From a virus (taxonomy: Duplodnaviria; Caudoviricetes), in the IMG/VR virus record IMGVR_UViG_3300043466_002653, positions 1 through 54,275 of that record: a stretch of DNA of 54,275 nucleotides; one strand, written 5' to 3'. The notes under the pieces were generated by a model that made no database searches, was not told where the DNA came from, and saw only the letters and a list, made by a program, of their open reading frames with translations. Position numbers and translations under genes: made by a program. Below are positions 1 to 14,531 of this stretch, piece after piece; within the stretch, counting starts at the first letter, position 1; every line of letters begins with the position of its first letter.

Positions 1-156
1 AAGGTTTGGAAAACTTTCAGAAAGTCAGGGAAAAATTTAGAGTGGTTCGTAATGTATTCTATATGGGGGTTTGGGTATTCTTATTTATCCCCCGCCAAAA
101 AAGCGGGGACTTCGTAATGTCTGATAGTATTATTTTATGCGCTAGTCCGACGGGAT

Positions 157-339: not shown

Positions 340-507
340 ATAAATATTATAACCCCTATTTGACAAACAAGGTTTGATATGGTATAAGTTCTGGGACTTT
401 TTTTCAAACCATCGTAATAAGATTCTGGGAAATTTTTAGTTAGGTTCGTAATACATCGCTAGGATGCTATAAGGTTTGAAAGGTTTGAAGGTTTGATCCC
501 CTAGGGC

Positions 508-523
508 GCACCCCGAAGGGTGC
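508..523 (-). terminator. stable hairpin (UUCG loop) after the 532-828 gene
   Basis: GCACCC-TTCG-GGGTGC on the minus strand; no clear U-tract. Confidence 0.4.
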
Positions 524-531
524 AGCCAGGT

Positions 532-828
532 TTACTCTTTTTCTCTTTCGCTTTTCTTTTGCTCTACGATTGCGAGCAGGTCATCAAGATTATCAACATC
601 AATGACATCTTCTTCTGTAACTTCCATAGCGTCAAGGAACATAGCAAATGTTTCGTTTACATATTCCTCTGCCATTGGTAGCGGTGTTACTACTCCCGTT
701 GCAATAAACCAAGCAAGGGGCAAGCCCACATCGTTGTATCCAATGAATGGCTTCAGGTCTTCATCATCTCTGAATTCATACCAAAACTGTCCTAAAATAC
801 CACATCTATCTGAAAATTCTACTTCCAT
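532..828 (-). CDS. hypothetical early protein (acidic)
   Basis: 98-aa ORF with GAGAGGA SD, overlapping the upstream gene. Confidence 0.75.
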   Translation of the reverse strand: MEVEFSDRCGILGQFWYEFRDDEDLKPFIGYNDVGLPLAWFIATGVVTPLPMAEEYVNETFAMFLDAMEVTEEDVIDVDNLDDLLAIVEQKKSEREKE

Positions 829-1061
829 AATTCTGTGTAATCCTCTCCTAAGTATCCTGTCATAAGTTTATCATACTCTTCCCCTGCGGTCAAGGCAACT
901 ACTTCAAGTCTTCGTGCTACGATAACTGGGTGGTTTCGTACCAAGTGAAAACCAAGTGCTTCCAAGTTCAATCCCATATCCTCAGTTAGCAGTTTAGCCA
1001 TTCGGTTAGAGTATTGTATTTCTTTAGTGCTTTCGGGTTTCCTACGAACGCTGTAAGCCAT
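819..1061 (-). CDS. hypothetical early protein
   Basis: 80-aa ORF, GAGAGG SD, TTGCGC-17-TATAAT promoter at 1081-1109. Confidence 0.75.
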   Translation of the reverse strand: MAYSVRRKPESTKEIQYSNRMAKLLTEDMGLNLEALGFHLVRNHPVIVARRLEVVALTAGEEYDKLMTGYLGEDYTELWK

Positions 1062-1184
1062 TGTCTACCTCTCTCAATCCATTATACCGTAAAGGACAGG
1101 GAGGCGCAACCCCCACAGACTGCGCCATCCCTATCTTTATTTAGTTAGTCAGCGGGGACCCATCCGCACTGACATTATTAGGCG

Positions 1185-1538
1185 CTAAGCGCTAATAGTT
1201 TGTGGAGCATATGCATTAATAAATGCTTGCCAATCGACTGACTGGTTATCAGTAACAGTCCTGTCTGTGAAATTAATAACTACGGTTTGTTCTCCAAGGT
1301 CCATAGAGCCATGATTATTAATAGCATAAATACCAAACCCTGTCTCATCCAGAATGAAATGCTGAATAAGATGACTAATGATCATCCGTGTTCCATATGA
1401 AGAATCATCCCATCGTGGTTTGGCATGCTGCAGGGCAGCAGCAATGTCCATCTCCCATGAGTCCTGGCCCCAGTGTGAGTAGAGTACTGTAGATGAATCG
1501 GTACCGTCCATAAATACGAAATTAATACGTGCTCCCAT
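1185..1538 (-). CDS. conserved phage hypothetical protein
   Basis: 117-aa ORF with LYSHWG motif; TAATG-coupled to the upstream gene. Confidence 0.75.
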   Translation of the reverse strand: MGARINFVFMDGTDSSTVLYSHWGQDSWEMDIAAALQHAKPRWDDSSYGTRMIISHLIQHFILDETGFGIYAINNHGSMDLGEQTVVINFTDRTVTDNQSVDWQAFINAYAPQTISA

Positions 1539-1879
1539 TAGTTCTCCTCCACATTGTATTCGCCTGTAAAGTCGATAACAATCATACCAACTCGTCCGTC
1601 CTCTGTTATGTCTGCATATACAGGGTAGATTCCGTCACCATATCCCGTGGAAAATGCTACAGCACTCATTCCACCCAATTGGCCAAAGCCTTTACCGCTT
1701 GTTGCATTGCAGGCACCAAGATATCCGTACTCTCCAACTTTTTGTTCGTTACTCTCGTAACTATCTACATCTCTATCCCAGTTTTTCCATTCATCTAAAT
1801 AGCACGGGTCACCAATAATTGCCTGTCCGCTATCTACTGAGAACTCTCCAATAAGTGTTAGGTTATTTGCTTGTATCAT
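1538..1879 (-). CDS. DUF4241-like protein
   Basis: VDSGQ..GDPCY and FSTGYGDGIYPVY motifs. Confidence 0.7.
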   Translation of the reverse strand: MIQANNLTLIGEFSVDSGQAIIGDPCYLDEWKNWDRDVDSYESNEQKVGEYGYLGACNATSGKGFGQLGGMSAVAFSTGYGDGIYPVYADITEDGRVGMIVIDFTGEYNVEEN

Positions 1880-1880
1880 T

Positions 1881-2312
1881 TTACTTCTCCAATCCTACGA
1901 GGGTCATTTCTTCAAGTGTAGCACATTGCGTACATTTTTGCAAATCGTGTTCGTCGAAGGCATCTCTAATAGTATTATCAGGGTCCTCAAACTCTGCTTG
2001 GCAGTTCTCACAATAGAACCAATTAAAACTAACTCTGATTTGAATGTCAGTATTTTCGGGGAATGGAATCTCAGTGATAAAGTATCCCAATCTATTTACA
2101 AATCCCCAGCCGCTCCAGATAAAGGAACCACCATCATCGCCATCCCCATACATCCATATATGATTAGGGTCAGTCTTCTTTACAAAGGCAACTTCATCCC
2201 CATAGGTTTCAAACATCATTCCATCGAAGGAAGCATTCTTATCTATATTATTAGGGATAGGTTTATAAGTGGCTACCCACTCGTCATAGTCAAGTTCAAT
2301 AAAGTTATTCAT
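1881..2312 (-). CDS. hypothetical protein with C-terminal Zn ribbon
   Basis: FETYG and VNRLGYFITE motifs, two CxxC pairs. Confidence 0.75.
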   Translation of the reverse strand: MNNFIELDYDEWVATYKPIPNNIDKNASFDGMMFETYGDEVAFVKKTDPNHIWMYGDGDDGGSFIWSGWGFVNRLGYFITEIPFPENTDIQIRVSFNWFYCENCQAEFEDPDNTIRDAFDEHDLQKCTQCATLEEMTLVGLEK

Positions 2313-2335
2313 TGGGTCCTCTCTTTATACTAAGT

Positions 2336-2611
2336 TTACTCTGTTGACTGTAGGTCTGTCAACTTCATACGGATAATGTCATATGCGTCGATAGCACCAC
2401 ATGCATAGTCATCTGTAGCGGTGTCGCCATCTTCTTCACAGGACTTGCGTACTAAGGTTAGTGCAGATATGCGTTCTTCTACAAAATGAAGAAGGCTTTC
2501 TACAACATCAATGGAGGCACACTCTCCGCAGTATGCTTCATAGTCTTCTTTGTCAGTGTAGGGGATAGACTTACCACATGAGTTACACCATGACTCATCA
2601 TACATTCCCAT
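2336..2611 (-). CDS. hypothetical Zn-finger protein
   Basis: CNSC/CGEC; ATG at 2611 with GGAGA SD. Confidence 0.65.
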   Translation of the reverse strand: MGMYDESWCNSCGKSIPYTDKEDYEAYCGECASIDVVESLLHFVEERISALTLVRKSCEEDGDTATDDYACGAIDAYDIIRMKLTDLQSTE

Positions 2612-2879
2612 TTTTTCTCCTATCGTCAATTGCAAATGCCAGTTGATATGTTAGGCCATACACTTCTACAAGTGCGTCAAGCCTTCCCTCTGCTCGTGTG
2701 CGGTCCATAGACAGCATAGCGTCTGAGTATCCACCGTCTTCTTCCTCAGTAGCAATTTCACTATATTCTTGCTCTGCAAGGAGTATCAGGTTTTTTAGTT
2801 CTCCATGTAGGATATCAGTACCTGATTCCCCCATGTCGATTAGTTTCTGTAGTCTTGGTTCCAGTTGTGTTGTTTCCAT
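2598..2879 (-). CDS. hypothetical early protein
   Basis: 93-aa ORF, leaderless start 6 nt after TATGAT. Confidence 0.7.
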   Translation of the reverse strand: METTQLEPRLQKLIDMGESGTDILHGELKNLILLAEQEYSEIATEEEDGGYSDAMLSMDRTRAEGRLDALVEVYGLTYQLAFAIDDRRKNGNV

Positions 2880-3044
2880 TACTCTATCATACCCTCTGCC
2901 ACTGACAAAAGGTGGCGGGTAGCCAAGACCTGACCGTTTAAATGAATAACAGAATCCCTATCCCCGTCAGGTAGGAGATCATAGTCCTGTTCAAGACTAA
3001 GTAGATGAATCTTTATATATTCTTTGAGTGTGTTTATGTCCATA

Positions 3045-3323
3045 CTATAAAGTATACGGGTTCGTGTTGATTTTTACAACTTCACGGGGTGTGACCTTGC
3101 TCACATCTAAAGAGTCTATGGCTATACCTGTCTGACTCTTAAACTCATCTAACATTTCTATAGTGTCAATGGTTGGAGATACCGTGGCATCTTCCCAAGA
3201 GATTAATGTCACATGGGATGAGGCCTGGCAAATGCAGGCGGGATCAATCTCAGGACTAACACACGCAGTAACCTCTATAAGAGCATCACAGGTATTACAT
3301 ACATAGATATACTTAGTCCACAT
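3045..3323 (-). CDS. hypothetical protein (CxxC..CxC)
   Basis: ORF coupled to the upstream stop (TAATG). Confidence 0.6.
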   Translation of the reverse strand: MWTKYIYVCNTCDALIEVTACVSPEIDPACICQASSHVTLISWEDATVSPTIDTIEMLDEFKSQTGIAIDSLDVSKVTPREVVKINTNPYTL

Positions 3324-3481
3324 TAGTCAAAGTACCCTTCTGCCCATAGTCCATCAAGGAATTCTGTTGCCTTATATAGGTGGTCGTGTAGCCAGGGATC
3401 ATTATTAAAATCAACGGTAGTTATAACAGAATGAATAGCCATGGACATATTATCTAAATCTTCTTTAGTATAGCCTAACAT
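3323..3481 (-). CDS. hypothetical protein
   Basis: Start MLGYTKEDL at 3481, coupled to the upstream stop, GGGAGAG SD. Confidence 0.6.
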   Translation of the reverse strand: MLGYTKEDLDNMSMAIHSVITTVDFNNDPWLHDHLYKATEFLDGLWAEGYFD

Positions 3482-3645
3482 TACTCTCCCCAATATTGTT
3501 GGATAAGCCACATGCATTGATGAAGAGTGCAATCGCAATCTCCACCGTTCATGTTTTCCATAAATTCAAAGTGCGATAGGTTGTCCTCATAAATTTCCAT
3601 TACGAGTTCTGATATTGTGTATGGTTTGTATGTTGTTTGGGTCAT
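3481..3645 (-). CDS. small hypothetical protein (54 aa, not in ORF track)
   Basis: MTQTTYKPYTISELVMEIYED...; leaderless start after the 3652-3680 promoter. Confidence 0.6.
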   Translation of the reverse strand: MTQTTYKPYTISELVMEIYEDNLSHFEFMENMNGGDCDCTLHQCMWLIQQYWGE

Positions 3646-3651
3646 GTATTA

Positions 3652-3680
3652 ATCATAGCATTTTAGGGGATAAATGTCAA
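3652..3680 (-). promoter_or_regulatory. sigmaA-type promoter
   Basis: TTGACA-17 nt-(TGC)TATGAT. Confidence 0.8.
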
Positions 3681-3781
3681 CTATCGTAATCAAAAAATGT
3701 GGGAAATGTTATTTGATCATCTTAATAGATATTATCAAAAATGTCAAATGGTACAAAACGGACATGCCCCTAGGCGATTTG

Positions 3782-3855
3782 CGAAGTGTACGGGACTTGA
3801 ACCCGTGATCTCTACCGTGACAGGGTAGCGCATTCACCAACTATGCTAACACTCC
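3782..3855 (-). tRNA. tRNA-Asp (GTC)
   Basis: Cloverleaf: acceptor GGAGTGT/ACACTTC, D arm GCAT/ATGC, anticodon arm CTACC-CTGTCAC-GGTAG, T arm ACGGG-TTCAAGT-CCCGT, discriminator G; CCA not encoded. Confidence 0.95.
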
Positions 3856-3859
3856 ATGC

Positions 3860-3886
3860 GAGCAGTTTTCAATCATGCTCAGGATT
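3860..3886 (-). ncRNA. repeated H-type pseudoknot motif, copy 1
   Basis: AATC-CT-GAGCA-T-GATT-GAAAAC-TGCTC. Confidence 0.7.
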
Positions 3887-3892
3887 TTTTTG

Positions 3893-4909
3893 TTATGCTA
3901 AAGACATAACATTTTGCACAACTTTTAGCAAACGATTTTTTTCTGCATTGATAGCAGGGTCAAAACCACTTGCAGATGCAAGGATTGACTCGTTAGAACC
4001 ACCACGAGCAGAACGGTACCAGTCAAGGCGTTCTGTAAGTGCATTGAAAGCACCCCACGCATTACCAGCAATCATACCATTGAACTCGCCTGTGTAAATA
4101 TCATTTACCATGTCGATTTTATTTTCCCATTTCTTGAAAGCACCCTTAGAGTCTTTTTCAGGCTTAGGATATGAGGCGAGCAAAATGTCATTGAATGACT
4201 TAGCACTTACCTCTTTTTCAATCATAGCCTTTGCCATGATGTCGAATTCGTCCATGTACTTATTAGCCATGCCAAGAGTTTCACGAGCAATCGCAACTTT
4301 ACCAGATGCGGTCTGAGTGTGACGAATCTTGAATGATTGCTTGATGCCATTCTTTTTCTTGATTGAACCAAGAGCAAGATTGAGAGTGTTAGCGCATACA
4401 ACACGAACAGGTGTAATGCTTGCTTGAATTGCAATCGAACCGTCATGTGATGTGTTGATGAGCAAATAAGTTTTGACCTTATCTGCAACACCTGAAGGGT
4501 CAAGAATTGTTTCACGCTCTAATGCAAGAGCACCGAATACAACACGACCACCCTTGATAGAGCCAGCGGTTTCCCAACGACCACCACCGTCAAGGATATT
4601 ATCACCGAATGAGAATAAATCTTCATTCTGCATTACATGGTAACGCTCACCCACGACACCAAGAATGTCGGTCTGAGAATTATCTGTAGGGTTAGTGCGA
4701 AGAACATACTGATAGTTCTTGTCGCTTGTGAGATGTGTAGGGGTTTCCAAATCTTCCAGACGAACATTCCAACCATTGAGGCTTGCTGCCTCTAACATTT
4801 CTGAGGTTGATTTTTCTTCTGTAAATACGGTACCCAATCCATGCCAAGCGGGTTCACGGAAAGATGCGAATGATGCCTTGCCGTTTTGTGTTTCGATGTC
4901 ATGTGCCAT
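3893..4909 (-). CDS. DUF932/DUF945 (TIGR03299-like) phage protein
   Basis: PAWHGLG, WETAGSIKGG, SHDGS, TPVRVVCANTL, IRHT and WGAFNALTE motifs. Confidence 0.9.
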   Translation of the reverse strand: MAHDIETQNGKASFASFREPAWHGLGTVFTEEKSTSEMLEAASLNGWNVRLEDLETPTHLTSDKNYQYVLRTNPTDNSQTDILGVVGERYHVMQNEDLFSFGDNILDGGGRWETAGSIKGGRVVFGALALERETILDPSGVADKVKTYLLINTSHDGSIAIQASITPVRVVCANTLNLALGSIKKKNGIKQSFKIRHTQTASGKVAIARETLGMANKYMDEFDIMAKAMIEKEVSAKSFNDILLASYPKPEKDSKGAFKKWENKIDMVNDIYTGEFNGMIAGNAWGAFNALTERLDWYRSARGGSNESILASASGFDPAINAEKNRLLKVVQNVMSLA

Positions 4910-4941
4910 GAGTTATTTTCCTTTTCTGTTGTTGAATTCTA

Positions 4942-4970
4942 AGTATAGCAGGACGGACTGACATATGCAA
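4942..4970 (-). promoter_or_regulatory. early promoter, TGTCAG class
   Basis: TTGCAT-A-TGTCAG-N7-TGC-TATACT. Confidence 0.8.
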
Positions 4971-5057
4971 ATCAAGATAGTTAGGCATAGACAAATTGGA
5001 CAATTTCCAGCGTGATCTTAATCACACATCTTAAATGGGCGTGTCGGCTTGACAAAG

Positions 5058-5066
5058 TTATCCACA
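5058..5066 (+). promoter_or_regulatory. DnaA box
   Basis: Perfect TTATCCACA in an intergenic spacer. Confidence 0.6.
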
Positions 5067-5094
5067 GGCCCCCTAGGAAATTTCAATAAAGAAT

Positions 5095-5123
5095 GAGCAG
5101 TTTACGTGGCCATGCTCAGGGCC
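5095..5123 (-). ncRNA. repeated pseudoknot motif, copy 2
   Basis: GGCC-CT-GAGCA-T-GGCC-ACGTAAAC-TGCTC. Confidence 0.7.
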
Positions 5124-5169
5124 CTTACCCAGTTTAGAGACTTTTGGTATGTCTATTAGTAGCCCCCTA

Positions 5170-5598
5170 CTAAAAATCAATTCTATCAACTGTAGCGCTA
5201 AGCCAAGTGATGTTGTCAGAATTATATGACACTGATTCAAAATCAATATCATTTATAATTGATTCTGTATCTTCGTCGTGAGGTACCTGCAGTGTTAGGT
5301 TGTAAGTTACAGTAACTTCAACTTCAACTTCTTGTATTAGTTCAAATCCGCAGATATTAGAAATTGCTTCGGCTTGTGATTCTGTTATATCTCCGTCGCG
5401 CAATTCGGAAAGAGTCCACTCTTGCATGTCGTTACGCATTTTGTTTATCTCTCCAGCGGTTGCATAGTCACGCTGTGTGATACGCTGAATGTGCTCATCT
5501 TTACTTTTGACTATTTCTTCAAGATTAGTAATTTGTCCTTGAAGAAATTCTGTTGTTGCAGTTATTACTGTTGGATATGATGTTTCCATGCGGTCCAT
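5170..5598 (-). CDS. hypothetical early protein
   Basis: 142-aa ORF, AGAAAGAGG SD, own promoter at 5630-5658. Confidence 0.75.
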   Translation of the reverse strand: MDRMETSYPTVITATTEFLQGQITNLEEIVKSKDEHIQRITQRDYATAGEINKMRNDMQEWTLSELRDGDITESQAEAISNICGFELIQEVEVEVTVTYNLTLQVPHDEDTESIINDIDFESVSYNSDNITWLSATVDRIDF

Positions 5599-5659
5599 AG
5601 GGGCCTCTTTCTATTTGTTGGTTAGTATAATTATATCGCGGGGTACTGACAAATGCCAG

Positions 5660-6157
5660 TTACCAAGATGATGAATAGTAGAATGATAGATTATCTACTT
5701 CAGGTAAAGCAAAGATACGCTTCAACTGAGTAACGGTACTTTCTAAATCTCTCCAATACCATTCATCAATATCTGTGCCACCAAAGAAAAATCCTGCTTG
5801 TGGTGGTAGTAGTGTTGGGTCCTTGGATTCAAGTGCGTGTTCACAGATAACCATTAGTTCTGTTAGTTTATCTTGTGGAACATAGTACTCACCGCAGTTG
5901 TCCTCACCCTTTTGAATATTAGTAACAAACCAGTTATGTATCTGATTAGCCTTGCGCCAATAGGCACAGGTAACCTCTACGGTTGCTCCATAAATATCTG
6001 TAGCAACATCCGTGAGTTGAGTCAACTCTAATAGGTCATTGAATTTTGGATAGACGGCTTCGGGTGAGTTGTAAGATAACTCATCATTGGACTGTAGCGC
6101 TTTCCAGTTTATTTTTTCTAAGTGCTTTCGTGCGTTGAGATACATATCTAATCCCAT
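5660..6157 (-). CDS. conserved phage hypothetical protein (MGLDMY / YWRKANQIHNWF family)
   Basis: Characteristic N-terminus, GFFFG motif and YYSSSW end. Confidence 0.85.
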   Translation of the reverse strand: MGLDMYLNARKHLEKINWKALQSNDELSYNSPEAVYPKFNDLLELTQLTDVATDIYGATVEVTCAYWRKANQIHNWFVTNIQKGEDNCGEYYVPQDKLTELMVICEHALESKDPTLLPPQAGFFFGGTDIDEWYWRDLESTVTQLKRIFALPEVDNLSFYYSSSW

Positions 6158-6184
6158 TGGGGCTCCTTCTTGTTGTTTATACTA

Positions 6185-6213
6185 AGTATAACAGGGGGGT
6201 CTGACAAATGCAA
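6185..6213 (-). promoter_or_regulatory. early promoter, TGTCAG class
   Basis: TTGCAT-T-TGTCAG-ACCCCCC-TGT-TATACT. Confidence 0.8.
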
Positions 6214-6225
6214 TTCCCTTGCGGG

Positions 6226-6252
6226 GAGCCTTTTTGGATCATACTCAGGATC
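6226..6252 (-). ncRNA. repeated pseudoknot motif, copy 3
   Basis: GATC-CT-GAGTA-T-GATC-CAAAAA-GGCTC. Confidence 0.6.
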
Positions 6253-6310
6253 ATCATCTCAGGCATACCCACGCATCATGGCCTGGGGCTTAGCAGAGAT
6301 GAAACTTAGT

Positions 6311-6337
6311 AAGCAGTTTAGCGACATACTCAGGTCG
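6311..6337 (-). ncRNA. repeated pseudoknot motif, copy 4
   Basis: CGAC-CT-GAGTA-T-GTCG-CTAAAC-TGCTT (G-U pairs in stem 2). Confidence 0.7.
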
Positions 6338-6376
6338 TTTATTCCCGTGTACCTCAATTAGAGGTGTATAGGAAAG

Positions 6377-6799
6377 TTATAGGTAACGGGCTACCGCTTG
6401 ATAAGTTGATGTGGAAACTGTTTCCTCATCTGTCATCTTTAGGATACGAATTGCGTTGCCAATTTCCTCTTTTTGGTTATTGTATTCGTGCTTGTGGATT
6501 GTATCAAAATCCTTCTCAGGCTCAGCAGGGAAATTAGAATCACTACCGACAATATCAAAATCAACATTGAGAGTCTTGTTCCATGAACGATAGTTCGTTC
6601 TGATGTTCTCAGCCTTTGAGAAATGGGCAATAGCATAGTTTGCTAATTCTGTCTGCCATGCCTTGTATGCTTCTTGATACTTTGCTTCTTTTGCTTCTTG
6701 TGATACAAAGTCAAGTTCTAACTTATTTAGTGATTGTGTGAGTGCGTCAATTACACGCTGAGTAGGTATTTTTACTGAGATTGCTTTTCCTCTTGCCAT
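6377..6799 (-). CDS. hypothetical early protein
   Basis: 140-aa ORF, helical N-terminal half. Confidence 0.8.
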   Translation of the reverse strand: MARGKAISVKIPTQRVIDALTQSLNKLELDFVSQEAKEAKYQEAYKAWQTELANYAIAHFSKAENIRTNYRSWNKTLNVDFDIVGSDSNFPAEPEKDFDTIHKHEYNNQKEEIGNAIRILKMTDEETVSTSTYQAVARYL

Positions 6800-6846
6800 C
6801 TGTTTTTCTCTTTTCTGTTGTGGGATATTTGTTAGGGGGTTGTGTT

Positions 6847-6873
6847 GAGCAGTTTTGTATCATGCTCAGGATA
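6847..6873 (-). ncRNA. repeated pseudoknot motif, copy 5
   Basis: TATC-CT-GAGCA-T-GATA-CAAAAC-TGCTC. Confidence 0.7.
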
Positions 6874-6897
6874 GTTGCTTTAGCGTTATTGCTAAAC

Positions 6898-7062
6898 TTA
6901 CTTTGCCGTCCAAGTTGTGTAACGGGCTGAACCATTTACATCTAACTTGACTCGTACATTACCATTAGCCTGTGGTGTGATTTCTTGGATTGTTCCAGTT
7001 ACCTTTGACTTCTGAGTTGTGTAGAGGTCGCCGACCTTGTATGTTGCTGTTGCTACTGACAT
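6898..7062 (-). CDS. small beta-rich protein (54 aa, not in ORF track)
   Basis: MSVATATYKVGDLYTTQKSKVTGTIQEITPQANGNVRVKLDVNGSARYTTWTAK; TTGACA-18-TATACT promoter at 7106-7135. Confidence 0.7.
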   Translation of the reverse strand: MSVATATYKVGDLYTTQKSKVTGTIQEITPQANGNVRVKLDVNGSARYTTWTAK

Positions 7063-7408
7063 TATTTTCTCTTTTCTGTTTAGTGGTTATTTTTTCTTAT
7101 ACCTAAGTATAACATTTTGTAGATAAAAATGTCAAATTGGAATCTGACATTTCTCACATACTGAGATTACTTTGGGGTCTTGATTTATGTTACGCTATTT
7201 AGTTATAGTATAATTTTAGCAGAAAAATGTCATAAATGCAAATCCTGGGGGGGTTCTGGGGTGTGACCTTAATTACATCTTAAAGGCGTGTCTAAACTTG
7301 ACAAATCAACATTTTTGCCCTAGGGCCCCTTAGTTACAAGGGACTTGCAAAAATAGAATATAAAAATATTGCAGTTAGAAATAAAATAATTACATCACCC
7401 ATTACATC

Positions 7409-8149
7409 TCATTTCTTAGTCGCAGAAAAAACTATGTCTGCTTTAGAGTATACACACAATGAGCAAGAAACGCAAGCCGAGCCATTAGTTGAGATAAGTG
7501 GAATTTGCTTATTGTTTTCAGGACACTTAGCGCCAGGTCTTCCCGTTAGTGCTTTCATGTCTGCCTGGCCTATTTCAAAATTCTTGGCAAGGTATGCTAA
7601 CTTTATGCCGTGATCCATTTTGAGTTCAATACCCTCATCCTTATTCTCGCTATCAGTAGAATAGTATAGTGAGAGATTAGGTTGGTCTTTTAGCATAAGT
7701 GCTGCAGACTTTACACGAGTGTATACCCAGAATTGAACATCACGGTAATCCATGATTACTTGCTTCCATGCATAGGCATATGTATCATTGAAGAAGTCAC
7801 CGTCCCAGTGAATACGGAATAGCATAGGTGCGTCTTTCTTTGCACAATCTTTGATAAAATCTACTATCATTTCTTTTAGTAGTGCGACCATAGTTTCATA
7901 GTCTGCGTCTTTTAGCAAGGCCCAGTTATGGAGCAGATTAGTTTTTACTCCTGGGAATATCTTTTCCAATTTGCCTGCGTAGCAAACAGTTTCGCAGATA
8001 GACGTTGCACCAGGACATGAATAGGCCTTTCCTGCAGGTAGTCCGAAGGTATTGGCAATTGCGGCTTGCTTTCCATTTTTTGTGACAAGGTTAGCCACCT
8101 TTCTATCGTTGGAGCGTTTTAGTTTTAGAGTAATTGTATTAGTAGTCAA
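7409..8149 (-). CDS. GP88-like Fe-S/radical-SAM-like phage protein
   Basis: FGLPAG..CPGATSICETVCYA, FRIHWDGDF, FWVYTR and C-terminal CxxCxxC; TTG start uncertain. Confidence 0.75.
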   Translation of the reverse strand: MTTNTITLKLKRSNDRKVANLVTKNGKQAAIANTFGLPAGKAYSCPGATSICETVCYAGKLEKIFPGVKTNLLHNWALLKDADYETMVALLKEMIVDFIKDCAKKDAPMLFRIHWDGDFFNDTYAYAWKQVIMDYRDVQFWVYTRVKSAALMLKDQPNLSLYYSTDSENKDEGIELKMDHGIKLAYLAKNFEIGQADMKALTGRPGAKCPENNKQIPLISTNGSACVSCSLCVYSKADIVFSATKK

Positions 8150-8327
8150 GTCCGAGGCTCATTTCTAATGCGATATCTTCATTATAGGTTGCAGACATTT
8201 CTTCAAGTACGCAATGGGTGCATTTTTCTTCATACTCATCTACTGAGTTTTCTTTACATTCAGGGCAGGTTGTTGCATAGTATTCGTCATAGTTTTCGTC
8301 ATAGAATTCATCTGCGATATTTCCCAT
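8139..8327 (-). CDS. small Zn-ribbon protein
   Basis: CPEC/CTHC, GGAGA SD, promoter at 8358-8379. Confidence 0.65.
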   Translation of the reverse strand: MGNIADEFYDENYDEYYATTCPECKENSVDEYEEKCTHCVLEEMSATYNEDIALEMSLGLDY

Positions 8328-8523
8328 GGGGCTATTCTCCTTTTTGTTGATATTTCAATTGTAGCATTTGGGTCTGACATTTCTTACGGTTGTAAGTTTT
8401 TTTAGAGGGCACAGAAGATGCAGCGTTGCTACGGCGTAATTCCATAAGCCTACGTAATTCCTCTGGATTTTTCTTCATAGAATAATCTTAGCATACATGG
8501 ATAAAAAATGTCAAATCTTAAAA

Positions 8524-8539
8524 TGTGATAAATCTCACA
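8524..8539. promoter_or_regulatory. CRP/GlxR-type site
   Basis: Perfect TGTGA-TAAATC-TCACA preceded by AAA. Confidence 0.75.
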
Positions 8540-8603
8540 CCGACACGCTAGGTAAATTGCCTAGGCATTTTTGTGCGGGGAAGCACACAAAAAATACTTT
8601 TAT

Positions 8604-8849
8604 TTATTCTTCTTCATGTTCTACGAATACATATAACTTGAATACATGTTCGTAGTTACATTCAAATACATCTTCCTCACCATATTCATTACGATAAGTA
8701 ATTGTATAATTATCTCCAGTAGAATCATCTACAATTGATATTACATCAACAATAGAGCCTTCAATCTCTACGAGATCATCTTCCATTAGTTGTGCTGGCG
8801 TGAGTAAATCTGCATATACCAATTCCATAAGGTTTATTGTATCAGACAT
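8604..8849 (-). CDS. hypothetical acidic protein
   Basis: 81-aa ORF in an operon. Confidence 0.65.
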   Translation of the reverse strand: MSDTINLMELVYADLLTPAQLMEDDLVEIEGSIVDVISIVDDSTGDNYTITYRNEYGEEDVFECNYEHVFKLYVFVEHEEE

Positions 8850-8993
8850 TTAGATCCCTTCATTGTCAAAATCAAGTAAGACTTCATTACAGTTTTCGCA
8901 TTCAATTGCGATATTTTGCTGGTCACCATAGATAGCAACATCTAAGGAATGTCCGTAGTGATCTGCTAATTCGTTATAGGTTTGTACGCTCAT
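8850..8993 (-). CDS. small hypothetical protein (47 aa, HxxH/CxxC)
   Basis: MSVQTYNELADHYGHSLDVAIYGDQQNIAIECENCNEVLLDFDNEGI, coupled to both neighbours. Confidence 0.6.
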   Translation of the reverse strand: MSVQTYNELADHYGHSLDVAIYGDQQNIAIECENCNEVLLDFDNEGI

Positions 8994-9277
8994 TAGTCCT
9001 CCCATTCAGGAAGCCAAAATTCCAAGTGGTGTTGTTCAATAATAGCCCTTGCAGGTGCTTGCGTACTTCCACGATATAGAATCTGAAAGTCACCAACCTT
9101 TGGCATGTCAATCATGCGGTCATAGTCCTCATCATAGTATGCGTCAATTGCTTCAATGCAAGGGGCTACCATTTCTGCGGGTACGGGAGGATAGTGATTA
9201 CCCTTCAAGTGATATAGAATCTGAGTTTCTAAGTCCAATACTGTATCCTGTATTCCTAACGCTGTTACACTTCCCAT
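8993..9277 (-). CDS. hypothetical protein
   Basis: HLKGNHYPPVP motif; ATG at 9277 with GAGGAG SD. Confidence 0.7.
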   Translation of the reverse strand: MGSVTALGIQDTVLDLETQILYHLKGNHYPPVPAEMVAPCIEAIDAYYDEDYDRMIDMPKVGDFQILYRGSTQAPARAIIEQHHLEFWLPEWED

Positions 9278-9431
9278 TATTCGTTCTCCTCTGATTCGTC
9301 TACCCATTCTACATATTCGTCATTATCTATTTCCATTAGGTTGGTATAGATTATTAGTTGTCCATAGTTATCCTGTTGTATATCATAGTCTGGCGCTATC
9401 TTTGCAAGTGCCGTTCTGAATTCATATCCGT

Positions 9432-9647
9432 TCATACTTTTACTACAACCCTTCCGTCACGATAAAATAATTTAGTATACATTTTGCCTGTTGGCGTTGA
9501 GATATTGACTGTTCGATATTCGTTAGCCATTCCCCAGTCGGTGAATCGGAAAAAACTTTCCCATGCACCAAACTCATTTTCATAGCGTTGTGTCCAATGA
9601 GGAGCGTGTCCGTCATATGCACTTGTTACTGCGTATTCGTATTCCAT
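9432..9647 (-). CDS. hypothetical protein
   Basis: 71-aa ORF, GAGG SD. Confidence 0.65.
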   Translation of the reverse strand: MEYEYAVTSAYDGHAPHWTQRYENEFGAWESFFRFTDWGMANEYRTVNISTPTGKMYTKLFYRDGRVVVKV

Positions 9648-9950
9648 TAGTTAGCCTCTTTCGTTGTAAATAATGCGCCTTCATTTAGTAAGCCCAATTC
9701 AATATTGAATAATTCATCGGGTGTTGCAGACTCTAAGTCTACCCACCCTGCACCGTCTTTGTCAATTCTAAATATCTCTATATATCCCATTATTGTTCCT
9801 CACAATTCTTTGTATAATCAAACTCACAATAGTAACAACCCATGAATTCTAAGTGTTCTTCACAATAGTACTTGAATTGACTTTCATCGCAACAAAAAAA
9901 CTGTTCATCTGATACTTCATAGAATTCTGTTTTATCAATTATATTCAACA

Positions 9951-10166
9951 TTATTCACTTACCTTTACTGCTACTGTGCGATAGGTTCTGCGACCAAAAT
10001 TATTGTATCCGCTATTAGGTGCAACCTCTACAAGATAAGTTTCGCAACCTTGATACCATATACCCTTTGGGTGTTTTTCTGCTGAGGTTATCTCACCTTG
10101 CAGAGTGCGTGAGTTGTAATTTGTTCCTATGAGTAGGTCTTGTATTGTATATACATTTGCTGACAT
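9951..10166 (-). CDS. hypothetical protein
   Basis: 71-aa ORF, GAAAGAGG SD, promoter at 10200-10221. Confidence 0.7.
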   Translation of the reverse strand: MSANVYTIQDLLIGTNYNSRTLQGEITSAEKHPKGIWYQGCETYLVEVAPNSGYNNFGRRTYRTVAVKVSE

Positions 10167-10269
10167 TTGCCAACCTCTTTCTTTTTGTTTATATAAATAA
10201 TCTTAGCATATGCGACTGACATTTTCACATTACTTGCCAGTAATTCCACATAGTAAGACGCTCAAACTC

Positions 10270-10285
10270 TGTGAGAAAAATCACA
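10270..10285. promoter_or_regulatory. CRP/GlxR-type site
   Basis: Perfect TGTGA-GAAAAA-TCACA. Confidence 0.75.
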
Positions 10286-10297
10286 TTCAACGTAAGG

Positions 10298-10318
10298 TTA
10301 TCCACAGCCTGTGGACGA
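10298..10318. promoter_or_regulatory. inverted DnaA box pair
   Basis: TTATCCACA-gcc-TGTGGACGA. Confidence 0.6.
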
Positions 10319-10347
10319 CACGCTAGATGATCGCCTAGCGAAAATTT

Positions 10348-10375
10348 GAGCAGTTTGAAATCTTGCTCAGGATTT
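10348..10375 (-). ncRNA. repeated pseudoknot motif, copy 6
   Basis: AAATC-CT-GAGCA-A-GATTT-CAAAC-TGCTC. Confidence 0.7.
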
Positions 10376-10386
10376 ATTTTTATTTT

Positions 10387-10572
10387 TTATTTTTCTGCAA
10401 GTTCTTGTATATAACATGCATTTTTGAAAGTCATTGGATTGAATCTTGGATTGTCAGATAAAAACATATCTGAAAAATCATAGACCAAATCCTCAAAAGC
10501 AAATTTTTCAATTAGACTTGAATAATTGCTTAGAATTTCAGCAGTTGCGACATAGTCTTTTCGTGTCATCAT
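10387..10572 (-). CDS. conserved phage hypothetical protein
   Basis: MTRKDY...DNPRFN..F..AC motif. Confidence 0.75.
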   Translation of the reverse strand: MMTRKDYVATAEILSNYSSLIEKFAFEDLVYDFSDMFLSDNPRFNPMTFKNACYIQELAEK

Positions 10573-10573
10573 T

Positions 10574-10780
10574 TTATTTTGCCACCTTTAGAATTGCGTA
10601 TGAGCCATTTTTATTTATTTCATCTATAGCAGGCTGAATCATTGGTGCAAGCAATTCTTTTAGCATACCTTCAAGCAATTCAATACGCATTGACTCTGAG
10701 ATAGCCATAAGTTGTTTCCCTACTGGGTGAGTTTCGTCTACTTCTGTGATGAACTTTAGATTGTGTTCTACTTTTACCAT
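10574..10780 (-). CDS. hypothetical protein
   Basis: ATG at 10780 with AAAGGA SD. Confidence 0.65.
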   Translation of the reverse strand: MVKVEHNLKFITEVDETHPVGKQLMAISESMRIELLEGMLKELLAPMIQPAIDEINKNGSYAILKVAK

Positions 10781-10921
10781 TTTTATCTGTCCTTTGTTAG
10801 TTGTTTGTTTTTGAAAGTTGCACACATTGGCATTGTGTTATATTTATTGTATCAGTACCGACTGACACGATAGCAAGGGTATCGCAATTATCGCATATCC
10901 ACATTCCCGCAATCTGTTGCA

Positions 10922-11107
10922 TTATAGAGTTGCCTTTCCTCTAAGTGTTCCACGAACGCCGAGAGCGTCGCAAGATACTTTTACCGCAACGCCTACAGGG
11001 AGTTGAGTTGGATAAGTTGAGATGAATTGAGCAACCGCACCTTTTGAGGGCATGTCAATCTTTTTTGTTGAACCTGAAAAGGTTTCAAGGATTATAGTGT
11101 AAGTCAT
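10922..11107 (-). CDS. hypothetical protein, paralog of 11808-11984
   Basis: TFSGSTK...VSCDALGVRG. Confidence 0.75.
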   Translation of the reverse strand: MTYTIILETFSGSTKKIDMPSKGAVAQFISTYPTQLPVGVAVKVSCDALGVRGTLRGKATL

Positions 11108-11217
11108 TTAGTGACTTCCTTTCGTAGTTTGTTTATATTATCTATTATAGCATTTTGGACTGACAATATCAAATCCAAATTCGGACATTTAGGACATTAG
11201 GAATGTGACGTTGGTCA

Positions 11218-11397
11218 CTATCGAGAGATAGTCCATTTTGACCACATATCCATACGGTCACCGTCAAATTCTAACCAAAATCTTTCGATATTAGTTTCGC
11301 ATACCTCACAAAAGGTATATTGCTCATCTCTTACATTTGAGATAGCAGGGATATGAGGTGTATGTTCTTGACATACTGTAGTTTTTAGTGAATTCAT
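11218..11397 (-). CDS. small Cys-containing protein, paralog of 13162-13347 (not in ORF track)
   Basis: MNSLKTTVCQEHTPHIPAISN..DEQYTFCEVCETNIERF..WSKW. Confidence 0.75.
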   Translation of the reverse strand: MNSLKTTVCQEHTPHIPAISNVRDEQYTFCEVCETNIERFWLEFDGDRMDMWSKWTISR

Positions 11398-11508
11398 TTT
11401 GAATTCCTTTCTTTATTGATAACCTTTATCAATTTTCTTTATACGAGAAGTATAGCATAAAAATGTCAAAAAGTCAAATCGACACGCCGTAAATCAGGGG
11501 AATAATCG

Positions 11509-11552
11509 TGTGATTCGTATCACATTAGTTATGCACATCACCCTGTGGATAA
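11509..11552. promoter_or_regulatory. CRP-type site plus inverted DnaA box pair
   Basis: TGTGA-TTCGTA-TCACA (11509-11524); TTATGCACA (11529-11537) and TGTGGATAA (11544-11552). Confidence 0.7.
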
Positions 11553-11807
11553 CTTTTGCCTAGCGTTTTTCATTCGCCTTTCACGAATAAAAAAGATCCA
11601 CTTAGTAAGCAAATCATAGAGAACCAAAACAATGCGCTACCGCTTGAAAAAAAGTTATTCATTAAATATCAAATCCTAAAAAATAAAATAAAAAATTAAA
11701 TAACATTATTAGTGAAAGAATATTATTTTCAATCACCGCTGGATCTGTTGCACTATCTAACCAAGTTAAATATTCGTTAATGCTTTCGATTAGTCCGTGT
11801 ATGTTCA

Positions 11808-11984
11808 TTATTTGTTTCCTTTCAAGTGACCTGATATTCCAAGGGCATCGCAAGATACCTGCAACACTACTGATTTAGGTAGTGCATTACTGAGTGCGCT
11901 CATGTACATAGCGACATCTAACGGGGTATTGAAAGGCATAGCCTTAGTGCTACCATTGAAGGTAGTTAGTTTTAGTGTTATCAT
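11808..11984 (-). CDS. hypothetical protein, paralog of 10922-11107 (not in ORF track)
   Basis: MITLKLTTFNGSTKAMP...VSCDALGISGHLKGNK. Confidence 0.75.
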   Translation of the reverse strand: MITLKLTTFNGSTKAMPFNTPLDVAMYMSALSNALPKSVVLQVSCDALGISGHLKGNK

Positions 11985-12130
11985 TATTTAGACTCCTCTA
12001 CATGAAACGCATTGAATTTAGCGATTTCGTTTTCGCTAAGTGGGTATAGTGATTTGTTTAGAGCGAATACCGCTCTCATCTCATCTTCTGCCTCTACGAC
12101 ATAAGATATAAGCACATTATATTTATTCAT
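11984..12130 (-). CDS. small hypothetical protein (48 aa)
   Basis: MNKYNVLISYVVEAEDE..., TAATG-coupled at both ends. Confidence 0.6.
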   Translation of the reverse strand: MNKYNVLISYVVEAEDEMRAVFALNKSLYPLSENEIAKFNAFHVEESK

Positions 12131-12294
12131 TATTTTACTCCTTTATATAAAAAGTCCCAAGCCTTACGGCAAATTAGTATGCTTTCGCAATTATCACAAC
12201 AGATAGAGCCGTGAGGGTTTAGGTTTATATCATATGCATCTACATATGCTATTGTGTTTCCGCAAACGGAATCAAGTGGATAGAGTGTGCTCAT
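12130..12294 (-). CDS. small Cys-rich protein, paralog of 12998-13162 (not in ORF track)
   Basis: LDSVCG...NLNPHGSICCDNCESILICRKAWDFLYKGVK. Confidence 0.75.
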   Translation of the reverse strand: MSTLYPLDSVCGNTIAYVDAYDINLNPHGSICCDNCESILICRKAWDFLYKGVK

Positions 12295-12533
12295 TAGTTA
12301 GCACCTTTCTTTAGTACGGACATGATAGCGACATATCGCTGAGCGATTATTACCGCTTTAGGATTCAGGGTAGAGTTGAATCTACCTTGTGAATAGTCGC
12401 TTGGGTATTTGTTAGCAATACGCTGAGCGATACGAGTAGGGAGAACATTGGTAGGGCGTGGAGAGTATCCACCTGCCTCTAAACCAAATTCGAGGGCAAT
12501 ATCCTTGCGGATACTTTCGTTATAGTGAGTCAT
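12294..12533 (-). CDS. hypothetical protein
   Basis: 79-aa ORF, AGAAAGGAG SD, promoter at 12588-12609. Confidence 0.7.
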   Translation of the reverse strand: MTHYNESIRKDIALEFGLEAGGYSPRPTNVLPTRIAQRIANKYPSDYSQGRFNSTLNPKAVIIAQRYVAIMSVLKKGAN

Positions 12534-12643
12534 ATTTGACTCCTTTCTTTAGCGGAATTCTTTACCGCTTGTTTTCTTTATATATACATTATAGCAGGGG
12601 GGTCTGACATATTGAGGGGTACAAATTATACTAAAACGGACAT

Positions 12644-12675
12644 TGTGAGATTAGTCACATGAGATGTAGGTCACA
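12644..12675. promoter_or_regulatory. tandem CRP-type sites
   Basis: TGTGA-GATTAG-TCACA directly followed by TGAGA-TGTAGG-TCACA. Confidence 0.7.
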
Positions 12676-12800
12676 TTTTCCAGGGGAATTATAACATTTA
12701 CATAACAATATTAAAACTATCGGTGTGTCGACTTGACACGAGCCCTAGTAGATCACCTAGCAAATTTTGCATAGTGTTTAGTTATGCAAAACTTTTTTAT

Positions 12801-12998
12801 TTATCTTTTTATCATTTCTTTTGCATTTTCTAAAATAGATAATTGTTCACGAAACGATTTTGCAATTTCGTTTTGTTGTTCTTCTGTAAGTGTTGTCCAC
12901 ACATAACCAAGAAGATAGTGTGTGCCACTATCAGCATTGCCATAGCGAATTTCTGTAGACATTTTGCGAATGTCTGCAAGTAGTTGCATATCTTTCAT
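12801..12998 (-). CDS. hypothetical protein
   Basis: ATG at 12998 with AAGGAG SD. Confidence 0.65.
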   Translation of the reverse strand: MKDMQLLADIRKMSTEIRYGNADSGTHYLLGYVWTTLTEEQQNEIAKSFREQLSILENAKEMIKR

Positions 12999-13162
12999 TA
13001 TTTTACTCCTTTGTATAAAAAATCCCATGCCTTACGGCAGATTAAAATTGAGCGACAGTTATCGCAACAGATAGACCCGTTAGGGTTGAGGTTGAAGTCA
13101 TATGAATCAACGAATGTATGTGTCTTTCCACATACTGAATCAAGACGAATTAGTGTAGTCAT
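12998..13162 (-). CDS. small Cys-rich protein, paralog of 12130-12294
   Basis: LDSVCG...GSICCDNCRSILICRKAWDFLYKGVK. Confidence 0.75.
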   Translation of the reverse strand: MTTLIRLDSVCGKTHTFVDSYDFNLNPNGSICCDNCRSILICRKAWDFLYKGVK

Positions 13163-13347
13163 TATTCTGATACCTTCCATTTAGACCATGGAGCATATGG
13201 GTTTGACGAATCAGCCCAACGCTCGATATTTTGTTCACACTCTGTGCAGAATGTGAATTGCTCATCGAAACACATATTGTATGTGTTAGAGATAGCGGAC
13301 ATTTGAGGTGTATGCGTTTCGCATACTATTGTATTTAGTGAATTCAT
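13162..13347 (-). CDS. small Cys-containing protein, paralog of 11218-11397
   Basis: MNSLNTIVCETHTP..AISN..DEQFTFCTECEQNIERW..WSKW; AGAAAGGAA SD. Confidence 0.75.
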   Translation of the reverse strand: MNSLNTIVCETHTPQMSAISNTYNMCFDEQFTFCTECEQNIERWADSSNPYAPWSKWKVSE

Positions 13348-13363
13348 GTTGAATTCCTTTCTA

Positions 13364-13567
13364 TTAGTTAAAGTGATAGTTGCAGATATTAGTTTCTGCA
13401 TTGTTGATAAGGACAAGGTGAGATGAAACAGGAGATGTGCAATCTGCAATCTCACACTTTCCACCTAAATATGAATCGTGGATATCGCAACCATATCCAT
13501 CGCAATATGAATCTTCACACTCAATAGACCAATCGGCTTGAGGTGTTATGTCAATTAGTGAAGTCAT
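13364..13567 (-). CDS. small Cys/His-rich protein
   Basis: 67 aa, six Cys, AGAAAGGAAG SD, promoter at 13623-13644. Confidence 0.65.
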   Translation of the reverse strand: MTSLIDITPQADWSIECEDSYCDGYGCDIHDSYLGGKCEIADCTSPVSSHLVLINNAETNICNYHFN

Positions 13568-13974
13568 TTTGACTTCCTTTCTTTAGTTAGGTTTACTTCT
13601 TTTTCAACCTTCTATATATAGAAGTATAGCAGGGGGGTCTGACATCTACTGAGCGGTAACTATGACAAAACGGACATTTTGATTTGTGATGTACGCCACA
13701 AATTATGACAAGGCTCTGACCTGCACTTATAGGGCGGGGGTCGAATGTGATGTACGCCACAGGGTGGGCTGTAGTGTATAACAATTTGATAACTTTTATG
13801 CGGGTACTGGCGTGTCGACTTGACAAAATCGCTAGGAGATATGTGCTCACTATATTTTTTAGGTTTTATATACATAAACACGTATCATACATCTGAACAA
13901 ATTATTCAGATTTTAGGCTATTTGGGTTTTACAAAATTTTTCAGATTTTCCACGGGATAGGGTATAATAGATCT

Positions 13975-14527: not shown

Positions 14528-14531
14528 TTGA

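Follow-up and report, generated by a model that had tools for sequence, protein, structure and literature searches.

The 54,275-nucleotide (nt) stretch of phage DNA considered here (IMG/VR record IMGVR_UViG_3300043466_002653, positions 1 to 54,275; hereafter the window) carries on its minus strand five canonical copies and one degenerate copy of an H-type RNA pseudoknot of about 28 nt. Comparison with homologues on other contigs indicates that the element constitutes a large and strongly covarying family of phage RNAs without an entry in Rfam. The copies follow open reading frames (ORFs), and in informative cases a tRNA or a hammerhead ribozyme begins within a few bases of the knot. The explanation favored here, with a confidence that stops just short of even, is that the motif may act in cis as a cap, shielding the 3' end of the upstream message after the transcript has been cleaved downstream.

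The pattern CTGAGYAW-N4-12-AAACTGCTY was run over the window, with 100 dinucleotide-preserving shuffles as background. Five matches were found, all on the minus strand (3860, 5095, 6311, 6847 and 10348), and none appeared in the 100 shuffled sequences. The half-site CCTGAGYAWG gave six matches against a shuffle mean of 0.33, the additional one lying at 6240-6249. A covariance model, R1, was built from homologues on other contigs together with four of the window copies, and the whole window was scanned with the filters off. Exactly six sites were recovered, at 45.9, 44.4, 44.3, 43.8, 28.3 and 19.2 bits (E <= 0.0014), and the best match after them had E = 0.1. The first-pass annotation had listed six copies of the pseudoknot; all six places are real, but the copy at 6223-6255 is degenerate, with four of the five pairs of stem 2 (S2).

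Copy A (3859-3886; 43.8 bits with R1) has the stem 1 (S1) AAUC/GAUU, the loop C-UGAGCA-U, the loop 3 (L3) sequence GAAAAC and the 3' strand of stem 2 (S2') UGCUC(G). It begins 6 nt past the stop codon of a DUF932 (phrog_1221) gene (3893-4909, minus strand), and its S2' ends 4 nt ahead of the 5' end of a tRNA-Asp (GUC) at 3781-3855 on the same strand (68.7 bits in the Rfam scan). Copy B (5094-5123; 28.3 bits), with S1 GGCC/GGCC and the L3 ACGUAAAC, 2 nt longer than usual, begins 46 nt past the stop codon of the ORF 5170-5598 and is followed by a 185-nt gap with promoter-like sites. Copy E (6846-6873; 45.9 bits; S1 UAUC/GAUA) begins 24 nt past the stop codon of a 54-amino-acid ORF (6898-7062), and its S2' ends 47 nt before the ATG at 6799. 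Copy F (10347-10375; 44.4 bits), whose S1 AAAUC/GAUUU has 5 base pairs (bp), begins 11 nt past the stop codon of the ORF 10387-10572 and precedes a 178-nt gap.

The two remaining copies lie close together. Copy D (6310-6337, within 6308-6340; 44.3 bits) begins 39 nt past the stop codon of the ORF 6377-6799 and has S1 CGAC/GUCG and S2 GAGUA/UGCUU, in which two G-U pairs would become A-C mismatches on the opposite strand. The degenerate copy C (6225-6252, within 6223-6255; 19.2 bits) follows copy D at a distance of 57 nt and shortly precedes a promoter-like site (6207-6179) and an ATG at 6157. It has S1 GAUC/GAUC and the tail AAAAGGCUC, and its S2 is reduced to four of five pairs (GAGU/GCUC, one of them U-G). 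The tail AAAAGGCUC in place of AAACUGCUC, which gives a four-pair stem 2, recurs in nine copies elsewhere, including those of loci L012, L043 (twice), L066, L077, L090 and L111; because of this recurrence, the form is taken as a subtype and not as debris. All six window copies are intergenic and in sense orientation, and no U-tract follows any of them, so that the placement first described, 3' untranslated or intercistronic without a terminator U-tract, is true of every copy in the window. The stem 1 helices given above, up to (A)AAUC/GAUU(U) in copy F, are likewise those originally listed and are borne out by the sequence.

Stem 1 was assessed on 172 unique copies of the 23-nt spacing class, collected without any filter on stem 1. 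Pairs 1 to 3 are Watson-Crick in 172, 170 and 169 of these copies, and four to six pair types occur at pairs 2 and 3: pair 2 is UA in 85 copies, AU in 64 and CG in 20, and pair 3 is GC in 97, AU in 35, CG in 22 and UA in 15. Pair 4 is formed in 131 copies (115 Watson-Crick and 16 G-U), and pair 5 is at chance level. Across the family the stem therefore has 3-4 bp, not the 4-5 bp first proposed. Stem 2 was examined with a scan agnostic to it, in which only the S1 hairpin with a loop starting in CU and the fixed AAAC were required. All five S2 pairs were present in 205 of the 216 matches, of which 187 are canonical. The other 18 carry fully compensated non-canonical stems, which jointly alter all five positions on both sides (AAGCA/UGCUU, GGGUA/UACCC, GGACA/UGUCC, AGACA/UGUCU, AGGCA/UGCCU, GGGCG/CGCCC and GAGUA/UACUC). 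The 11 incompletely paired matches probably include some that arose by chance.

Formal covariation was calculated on a set of 80 sequences, namely the 18 S2 variants, four window copies and the first 58 rows of an earlier list. Changes on both sides occur at 9 of the 10 pairs. The share of paired cells is 96.1%, compared with 79.3% in shuffles (0 of 500 as high), a figure flattered by the 18 variant rows, which were picked for pairing; the unselected evidence is that of the 172-copy and S2-agnostic counts. Pairing drops to 23-38% once the partner columns are slid, and none of the 500 shuffles matches the observed covariation score. Two interleaved helices, each covarying, characterize the motif as an H-type RNA pseudoknot, and the original proposal of such a fold at the RNA level is upheld by the covariation of both stems across more than 200 homologues.

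The alignment also refines the fold. The invariant U9 pairs with the base after stem 2, as U-A in 56 and U-G in 10 of the 80 sequences, and nested folding chooses a 6-bp S2. The CU first taken as an unpaired loop must be revised, since the U usually pairs with the A after stem 2, S2 reaches up to 6 bp and loop 1 is a single C. As deduced from the aligned copies, stem 1 consists of 3-4 bp with an invariant C-G closing pair, and stem 2 of 5-6 bp, in which UGAGYA pairs with UGCUCA. The stems are separated by a single junction base, which is A or U and in rare cases C, and L3 is A-rich, with two or three variable bases and an invariant AAAC. By analogy with other compact pseudoknots, loop 3 would lie in the minor groove of S1. 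A U-G pair at position 13-27 occurs in 46 of the 172 unique copies, and because it would be an A-C mismatch on the other strand, it speaks for an element made of RNA, or of single-stranded DNA, from the gene strand. G-U pairing had been described as kept on the minus strand only; this holds for copy D, with GAGUA/UGCUU, and across the homologues the U-G wobbles are confined to the gene strand. In a second motif-like copy in locus L029 (about 9985-10030, plus strand), 8 nt are inserted after the loop and ahead of the 3' strand of S1, and this insertion can form an alternative CUGAG/CUCAG hairpin.

The family extends far beyond the window. At least 119 viral contigs match the pattern. Chance matches are expected in a collection that large, and stem 1 pairing, which the pattern leaves unconstrained, served as the discriminator. 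Three or more consecutive S1 pairs beside the loop were found in 126 of the 143 viral matches listed, where about 5% is calculated by chance; at the commonest spacing, 23 nt, all 101 of the 101 viral matches listed have them. Contigs of prokaryotic genomes and metagenome-assembled genomes (MAGs) were scanned with a stricter pattern, and at least 118 contigs matched it. Among the 123 matches listed, 95 have an S1 of at least 3 bp, and the remainder look like chance occurrences in G+C-rich coding DNA. The good matches were on contigs assigned to Saccharibacteria, Firmicutes, Cyanobacteria, Bacteroidota, Proteobacteria, Aminicenantes and a Methanobrevibacter MAG, host phyla that are to be taken as soft, since the binning of phage contigs is unreliable.

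Two cultured phages carry the motif. In Mycobacterium phage Labelle (Patiencevirus) it occupies 56445-56467 of ON108649, 6 nt past the stop codon of gene 85, and in Paracoccus phage ParMal1, a T7-like member of the Autographiviridae, it occupies 25303-25325 of OQ376858, between two coding sequences. With a mycobacteriophage, a T7-like Paracoccus phage, lake phages and contigs binned to many phyla among its carriers, the motif is, as far as sequence distribution can tell, host-independent. The first-pass annotation did not recognize the family, and the search of Rfam 15 with covariance models agrees, giving no match to the motif. Over the whole window only the tRNA reaches a gathering threshold; between 6200 and 6900, three chance-level matches were obtained at E <= 10, none of them on the motif; and the GP20-b RNA motif (RF03003) has no window match at E <= 10. 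No description of the motif was found in the full-text literature, and a listing in the supplements of motif-discovery papers (e.g. PMC5737381) is possible. No RNA-seq study of the Patience phage group appeared in the literature listing for that group.

Placement relative to genes was analyzed in the 144 viral copies listed and in 228 non-redundant copies overall; for 217 of the latter, an ORF of 60 or more codons is found no more than 400 nt upstream. Of the viral copies listed, 140 are co-oriented with their surroundings, nearby ORF sequence being mostly on the same strand, and 4 are contained in an ORF of 60 or more codons on their own strand. Distances between stop codon and S1 are sharply bounded from below: among the 217 copies, a spacing under 4 nt occurs in 2, one of 4 nt in 5, one of 5 nt in 17 and one of 6 nt, the mode, in 22, after which the numbers decay; in 117 of the 217 the spacing is no more than 20 nt. 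If the distance is taken to the first loop base instead, its minimum is 9 nt (found in 27 copies, with 2 below), and from the motif to the next start codon a floor is seen near 19-20 nt (5th and 10th percentiles). Both floors match ribosome footprints. By this analogy, the knot stays just out of reach of the ribosome that terminates upstream and of the one that initiates next.

The sequence just downstream also shows preferences. In 70% of copies S2 is followed by A; pyrimidines occupy the two positions after that, and G is depleted over about 8 nt. The T content downstream of the motif is 36-42%, without a U-tract. The upstream genes are diverse and mostly of unknown function. DUF932/phrog_1221 genes account for 16 of 104 stop-proximal cases, and a few others are anti-restriction, SSB or exonuclease genes.

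Structured RNAs are found directly after a subset of copies. A same-strand tRNA follows at 4-13 nt in 15 of the 144 viral copies listed (Asp in 12, including that of the window, Arg in 2 and Ser in 1). The order of copy A, motif then tRNA, was found in 15 further loci; in L027 the Rfam scan places the tRNA 7 nt after the motif. No tRNA was found within 60 nt upstream of the motif among the 144 viral copies listed. Conversely, the motif lies within 30 nt upstream of 16 of 84 first or solitary tRNAs, compared with 0 of 27 tRNAs that follow another tRNA. Since the order is always ORF then motif and never tRNA then motif, the data point to an element belonging to the upstream translated cistron. 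The tRNA-Asp of the window (3781-3782 and downstream) encodes no 3' CCA, its acceptor stem being followed by G, C and A. On the plus strand of another viral contig (L006, 1934-2540), about 250-800 nt past a motif copy, two tRNAs occur together with 81 nt that match the tmRNA model (RF00023) at 61.4 bits.

Type III hammerheads begin one or two bases after the motif in four loci (L166, L013, L008 and L160). On the minus strand of L166 they lie at 7271-7325 and 7541-7595. The one abutting the motif scores 41.2 bits in Rfam (E = 1e-5), below the 48.5-bit gathering score, and the second one nearby, at 50.5 bits, is the only one to reach that score. The hammerhead of L013 (2549-2593, minus strand) is a weak Rfam match of 19.9 bits, and those of L008 (about 13773-13840, plus strand) and L160 (downstream of 7456, minus strand) were recognized by eye. 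A regular expression for the hammerhead core matched within 120 nt downstream of 3 of the 144 viral copies listed, two of them convincing, and L160 and L166 add two more. The association thus appears real but rare. According to a hand parse of the stems, cleavage would fall about 6-13 nt after the motif. DUF2800 RNAs (RF02960) begin 2 nt after the motif in two further loci, both on the plus strand (L035, 285-445, 160 bits; L203, 5432-5592, 156 bits).

The cap explanation is preferred because of the ORF-then-motif order and because, in the informative cases, a cleavage site for RNase P or a hammerhead lies 4-13 nt away. The motif would be transcribed as part of a polycistronic early phage RNA and fold into its compact pseudoknot, which would mark and shield the 3' end of the upstream cistron. 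The transcript would be cut a few bases past the knot by RNase P at a tRNA, by a type III hammerhead or by ordinary endonucleases. The knot would then form the very 3' end, followed by too few bases for 3'-5' exonucleases to take hold, and the upstream coding RNA would survive. From the observed fold, strand, placement rules and neighbours we infer the resistance to exonucleases and the direction from which they approach. Four roles had been offered at first without a choice among them. Of these, the exonuclease block fits the context best and put/nut-like antitermination is disfavored, while protein binding or processing is conceivable, although no neighbouring protein family is common to more than 21 of 195 loci.

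Several observations weigh against the cap. Many copies have the next ORF 20-40 nt downstream, and most are without a recognizable cleavage site there. As many as 83 of the 217 copies lie more than 40 nt from the long upstream ORF, and the minimal distances to stop and start codons could simply be ribosome footprints in compact genomes. Terminator hairpins with U-tracts occur 15-30 nt after several copies (L144, L147, L155, L159 and L102) and would already protect the 3' end. In nested folds each stem alone amounts to -2 to -6.7 kcal/mol, so the stems are weak, and the near-invariant sequence of the loops and S2 goes beyond the needs of a plain stability element. Finally, the coremin motif of RNA viruses, the nearest look-alike in sequence, blocks 5'-3' and not 3'-5' enzymes.

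A different possibility is that the motif is a coremin-like roadblock to machinery travelling in the 5'-to-3' direction, for example Rho, exonucleases of the RNase J type, or ribosomes that slide or scan, and that it protects or insulates the downstream RNA. Its architecture and some of its letters resemble the Watson-Crick variant of coremin (a C-G-closed hairpin, GAG/CUC pairing and an A-rich spacer), an A-rich loop 3 over a short S1 usually reinforces a pseudoknot against unwinding from the 5' side, as in frameshifter pseudoknots, and structured RNAs (tRNA, hammerhead, DUF2800 RNA) stand directly after some copies. Coremin itself stalls Xrn1 and scanning ribosomes and stimulates frameshifting, according to two papers (PMC10520033, PMC10321173). 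The tRNAs speak against such a role, however: the motif is never found after a tRNA or between tRNAs (0/27), though such RNAs would need equal protection, and cleavage by a type III hammerhead would part the knot from the RNA downstream. The loop rule of coremin is not followed, the second loop base being an invariant U, and the second hairpin of coremin is not enriched (26/229 compared with 23-42 at control offsets). Some contigs are moreover binned to beta- and gammaproteobacteria, which are not known to have RNase J, a weak point given the unreliable binning. By analogy to coremin a roadblock is conceivable, but on balance it is judged unlikely.

A recognition site for a conserved enzyme or protein is rated somewhat lower still. 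The motif might imitate a tRNA acceptor minihelix, and so be seen by RNase P, RNase Z or the CCA-adding enzyme, or it might be bound by an endoribonuclease or RNA-binding protein through which early transcripts are divided into segments or regulated. A tRNA-like minihelix is a stacked helix of about 12 bp ending in a discriminator base and CCA. The stacked S2 and S1 would give a quasi-continuous helix of 9-10 bp, but this is shorter than the 12-bp acceptor/T arm. An A follows S2 in 70% of copies, and ACC (24/132) and ACCA (13/132) are well above the expectation from base composition; yet the A is more simply explained by the pairing of U9 (U-A or U-G in 66/80), and ACC is present in only 18% of copies, partly from stem III of hammerheads. 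Near-invariant sequence across phages of many phyla suggests a universal partner, but no co-occurring phage protein was found in the vicinity. A link to tRNA genes exists, but only 16 of about 230 copies adjoin one.

Very unlikely is a role in recoding or in modulating termination (readthrough, frameshift or block of re-initiation), exerted on the ribosome that terminates at the stop codon. The gap from stop codon to S1, with its minimum at 4-5 nt and mode at 6 nt, equals the spacer of frameshift and readthrough pseudoknots and would set the knot at the mRNA entrance of a ribosome positioned on the stop codon. The reading frames, however, do not continue: a new stop codon is reached ahead of the motif or inside it in 60 (frame 0), 59 (-1) and 82 (+1) of 103 stop-proximal copies, with median extensions of 8, 5 and 3 codons, respectively, and therefore no extended product is expected. 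The 83 of 217 copies more than 40 nt from a long ORF, and the window copies B, D and E at 24-46 nt from a stop codon, do not fit such a spacer either. A recoding signal was accordingly disfavored, there being no extended frame and only 4 of the 144 viral copies listed inside a same-strand ORF.

The chance that the motif is a very small self-cleaving ribozyme is slighter again. A wide distribution independent of a protein partner, highly conserved nucleotides combined with covarying stems, and neighbourhoods shared with hammerheads are features that a ribozyme would have. At about 28 nt, however, it is far below any known natural self-cleaving class, every S2 position tolerates compensated change, no Rfam ribozyme family matches, and a hammerhead or RNase P site directly after it would make a second cleavage redundant. 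A signal at the level of DNA or transcription (promoter, terminator, antiterminator, operator, nick or origin site) is least credible of all: the window copies are confined to an early-gene block, with promoter-like sites after copies B and C, but two interleaved covarying stems with strand-specific G-U pairs are unlike a duplex DNA site, transcription has to run through the motif to reach the tRNAs 4-13 nt and the ORFs 20-40 nt beyond it, the downstream T content of 36-42% comes without a U-tract, and the carriers include both phages with sigma-70-like promoters and a T7-like phage.

Two specific candidates of this kind were considered separately. An efficient intrinsic terminator is disfavored, since downstream tRNAs and ORFs are co-transcribed, a U-tract is absent and no terminator-like site overlaps a copy. 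A polymerase-specific antiterminator is disfavored because the motif is present both with sigma-70-like promoters and in a T7-like Autographiviridae phage, and because a tRNA at 4-13 nt leaves no room for a promoter.

The window itself belongs to a contig with an IMG/VR completeness estimate of 49%. Genes for a portal protein, tail fibres and a ribonucleotide reductase lie on its plus strand, and the virus is a tailed phage. Positions 1-16,000 contain small minus-strand ORFs with strong sigma-70-like promoters, and all six copies lie inside this region. On the minus strand the early block is headed by near-consensus sigma-70-type promoters at 11172-11144, 7135-7106 and 3680-3652, all three with 11 of 12 matches and a TG extension. 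The promoters point to a host RNA polymerase that uses TTGACA/TATAAT sequences. The stretch is present in 24 lake or freshwater metagenome runs, none of them on record as RNA. BLAST searches of the region, near and distant, found no close relative among cultured phages. The portal protein is nearest to those of Streptomyces phages, with 46-48% identity; the window has 33-41% G+C, yet these relatives are phages of about 130 kb from a genus of high G+C content.

A 9-mer resembling a DnaA box, TTATCCACA, occurs in four exact copies (5058-5066, 10298-10306, 11544-11552 and 41688-41696), the first three in early intergenic gaps and two of them just downstream of copies B and F. Pairs of TTATCCACA boxes are also seen after the motif in the related loci L009, L010 and L016. 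Allowing up to one mismatch, there are 17 such boxes in the window against a shuffle mean of 21, which is not a significant enrichment.

If the cap explanation is true, a widespread and so far undescribed layer of post-transcriptional control exists in phage early gene expression. Phage tRNA genes and hammerheads would be linked to the formation of mRNA 3' ends, which would give those ribozymes a concrete job, and a 28-nt, host-independent RNA stabilizer or insulator part would become available to synthetic biology. The two cultured carriers make the idea directly testable. Even without a known function, a large covarying family is missing from Rfam.

Among known systems, the motif may be placed with compact viral H-type pseudoknots or cis-acting message-end elements. 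The preQ1-I riboswitch aptamer (RF00522) is an H-type pseudoknot of about 34 nt, in which the loop pairs with the tail after an A-rich stretch. The phage motif gave no match to it although RF00522 was in the Rfam library searched; its 1-nt junction leaves no ligand pocket of the preQ1-I kind, and its copies, many to a genome, stand behind stop codons rather than ahead of queuosine genes. GP20-b (RF03003) is likewise an orphan small RNA motif associated with phages, without a covariance-model match to the present one. Similar in structure are also the frameshifter pseudoknots of the luteovirus and enamovirus type, of about 26-30 nt, with a loop 1 of 1-2 nt, a single junction base and an A-rich loop 3 over a short S1. 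Size, loops, junction and spacing from the ribosomal A-site codon are alike, but the phage motif stands after the stop codon and not inside an ORF, and it has neither a slippery site nor an extended frame.

Three papers (PMC10520033, PMC10321173, PMC6546385) describe the coremin motif (xrRNA-C) and its Watson-Crick variant (xrRNA-WCC) in beny-, cucumo- and other RNA viruses, as exoribonuclease-resistant RNAs (xrRNAs). The loop of coremin hairpin 1 follows the rule YGAD or YGNNAD (PMC10520033), and resistance to Xrn1 requires a second hairpin directly after the spacer. Coremin and the phage motif share a very short C-G-closed hairpin with a loop GAG that pairs with a downstream CUC, an A-rich spacer of about 6 nt with AAAC or AAA, and untranslated or intergenic sites in viral RNA, where coremin acts without proteins. 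The loop-to-spacer stem of xrRNA-WCC is also present (GAG with CUC, compensatory change at all five positions), with an S2 of 5-6 bp as opposed to 3 bp. In contrast to coremin, the 8-nt loop CUGAGYAW has an invariant U as its second base (101/101 and 80/80 aligned), which breaks YGAD/YGNNAD, and a hairpin 0-3 nt after the motif is found in 26/229 copies, against 23-42/229 at control offsets. The phage motif furthermore belongs to DNA phages of prokaryotes, whose hosts are without Xrn1, and its placement is tied to the upstream ORF. Because both the loop rule and the obligatory second hairpin are absent, the motif may work like coremin by analogy, but it would not be a member of the coremin family.

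Elements that define or protect the end of an upstream cistron are also familiar from bacteria and phages, in the form of REP hairpins, terminator hairpins and the intercistronic hairpins of T7 processed by RNase III. These, like the phage motif, are intercistronic or 3' untranslated structures of polycistronic RNA; they are simple strong hairpins without conservation across phyla, whereas the motif is a weak-looking conserved pseudoknot. The closest functional analogue may be the 3' end of MALAT1 and MEN-beta, where a triple helix, made of a U-rich internal loop and an A-tail, stands directly upstream of a tRNA-like RNA cut by RNase P. In both arrangements a compact, A-rich element with tertiary stabilization precedes an RNase P site by a few bases and would become the 3' terminus of the upstream RNA; the phage version differs in being an H-type pseudoknot instead of a triplex and in having a real tRNA downstream. 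It is possible, though doubtful, that the motif represents the first class of protein-independent exoribonuclease-resistant RNA in the prokaryotic virosphere, a knot of about 28 nt in phages of many phyla and some archaeal viruses that would set and protect mRNA ends together with RNase P or hammerhead cleavage, and thus would be the bacterial counterpart of the viral xrRNAs and of the MALAT1 arrangement.

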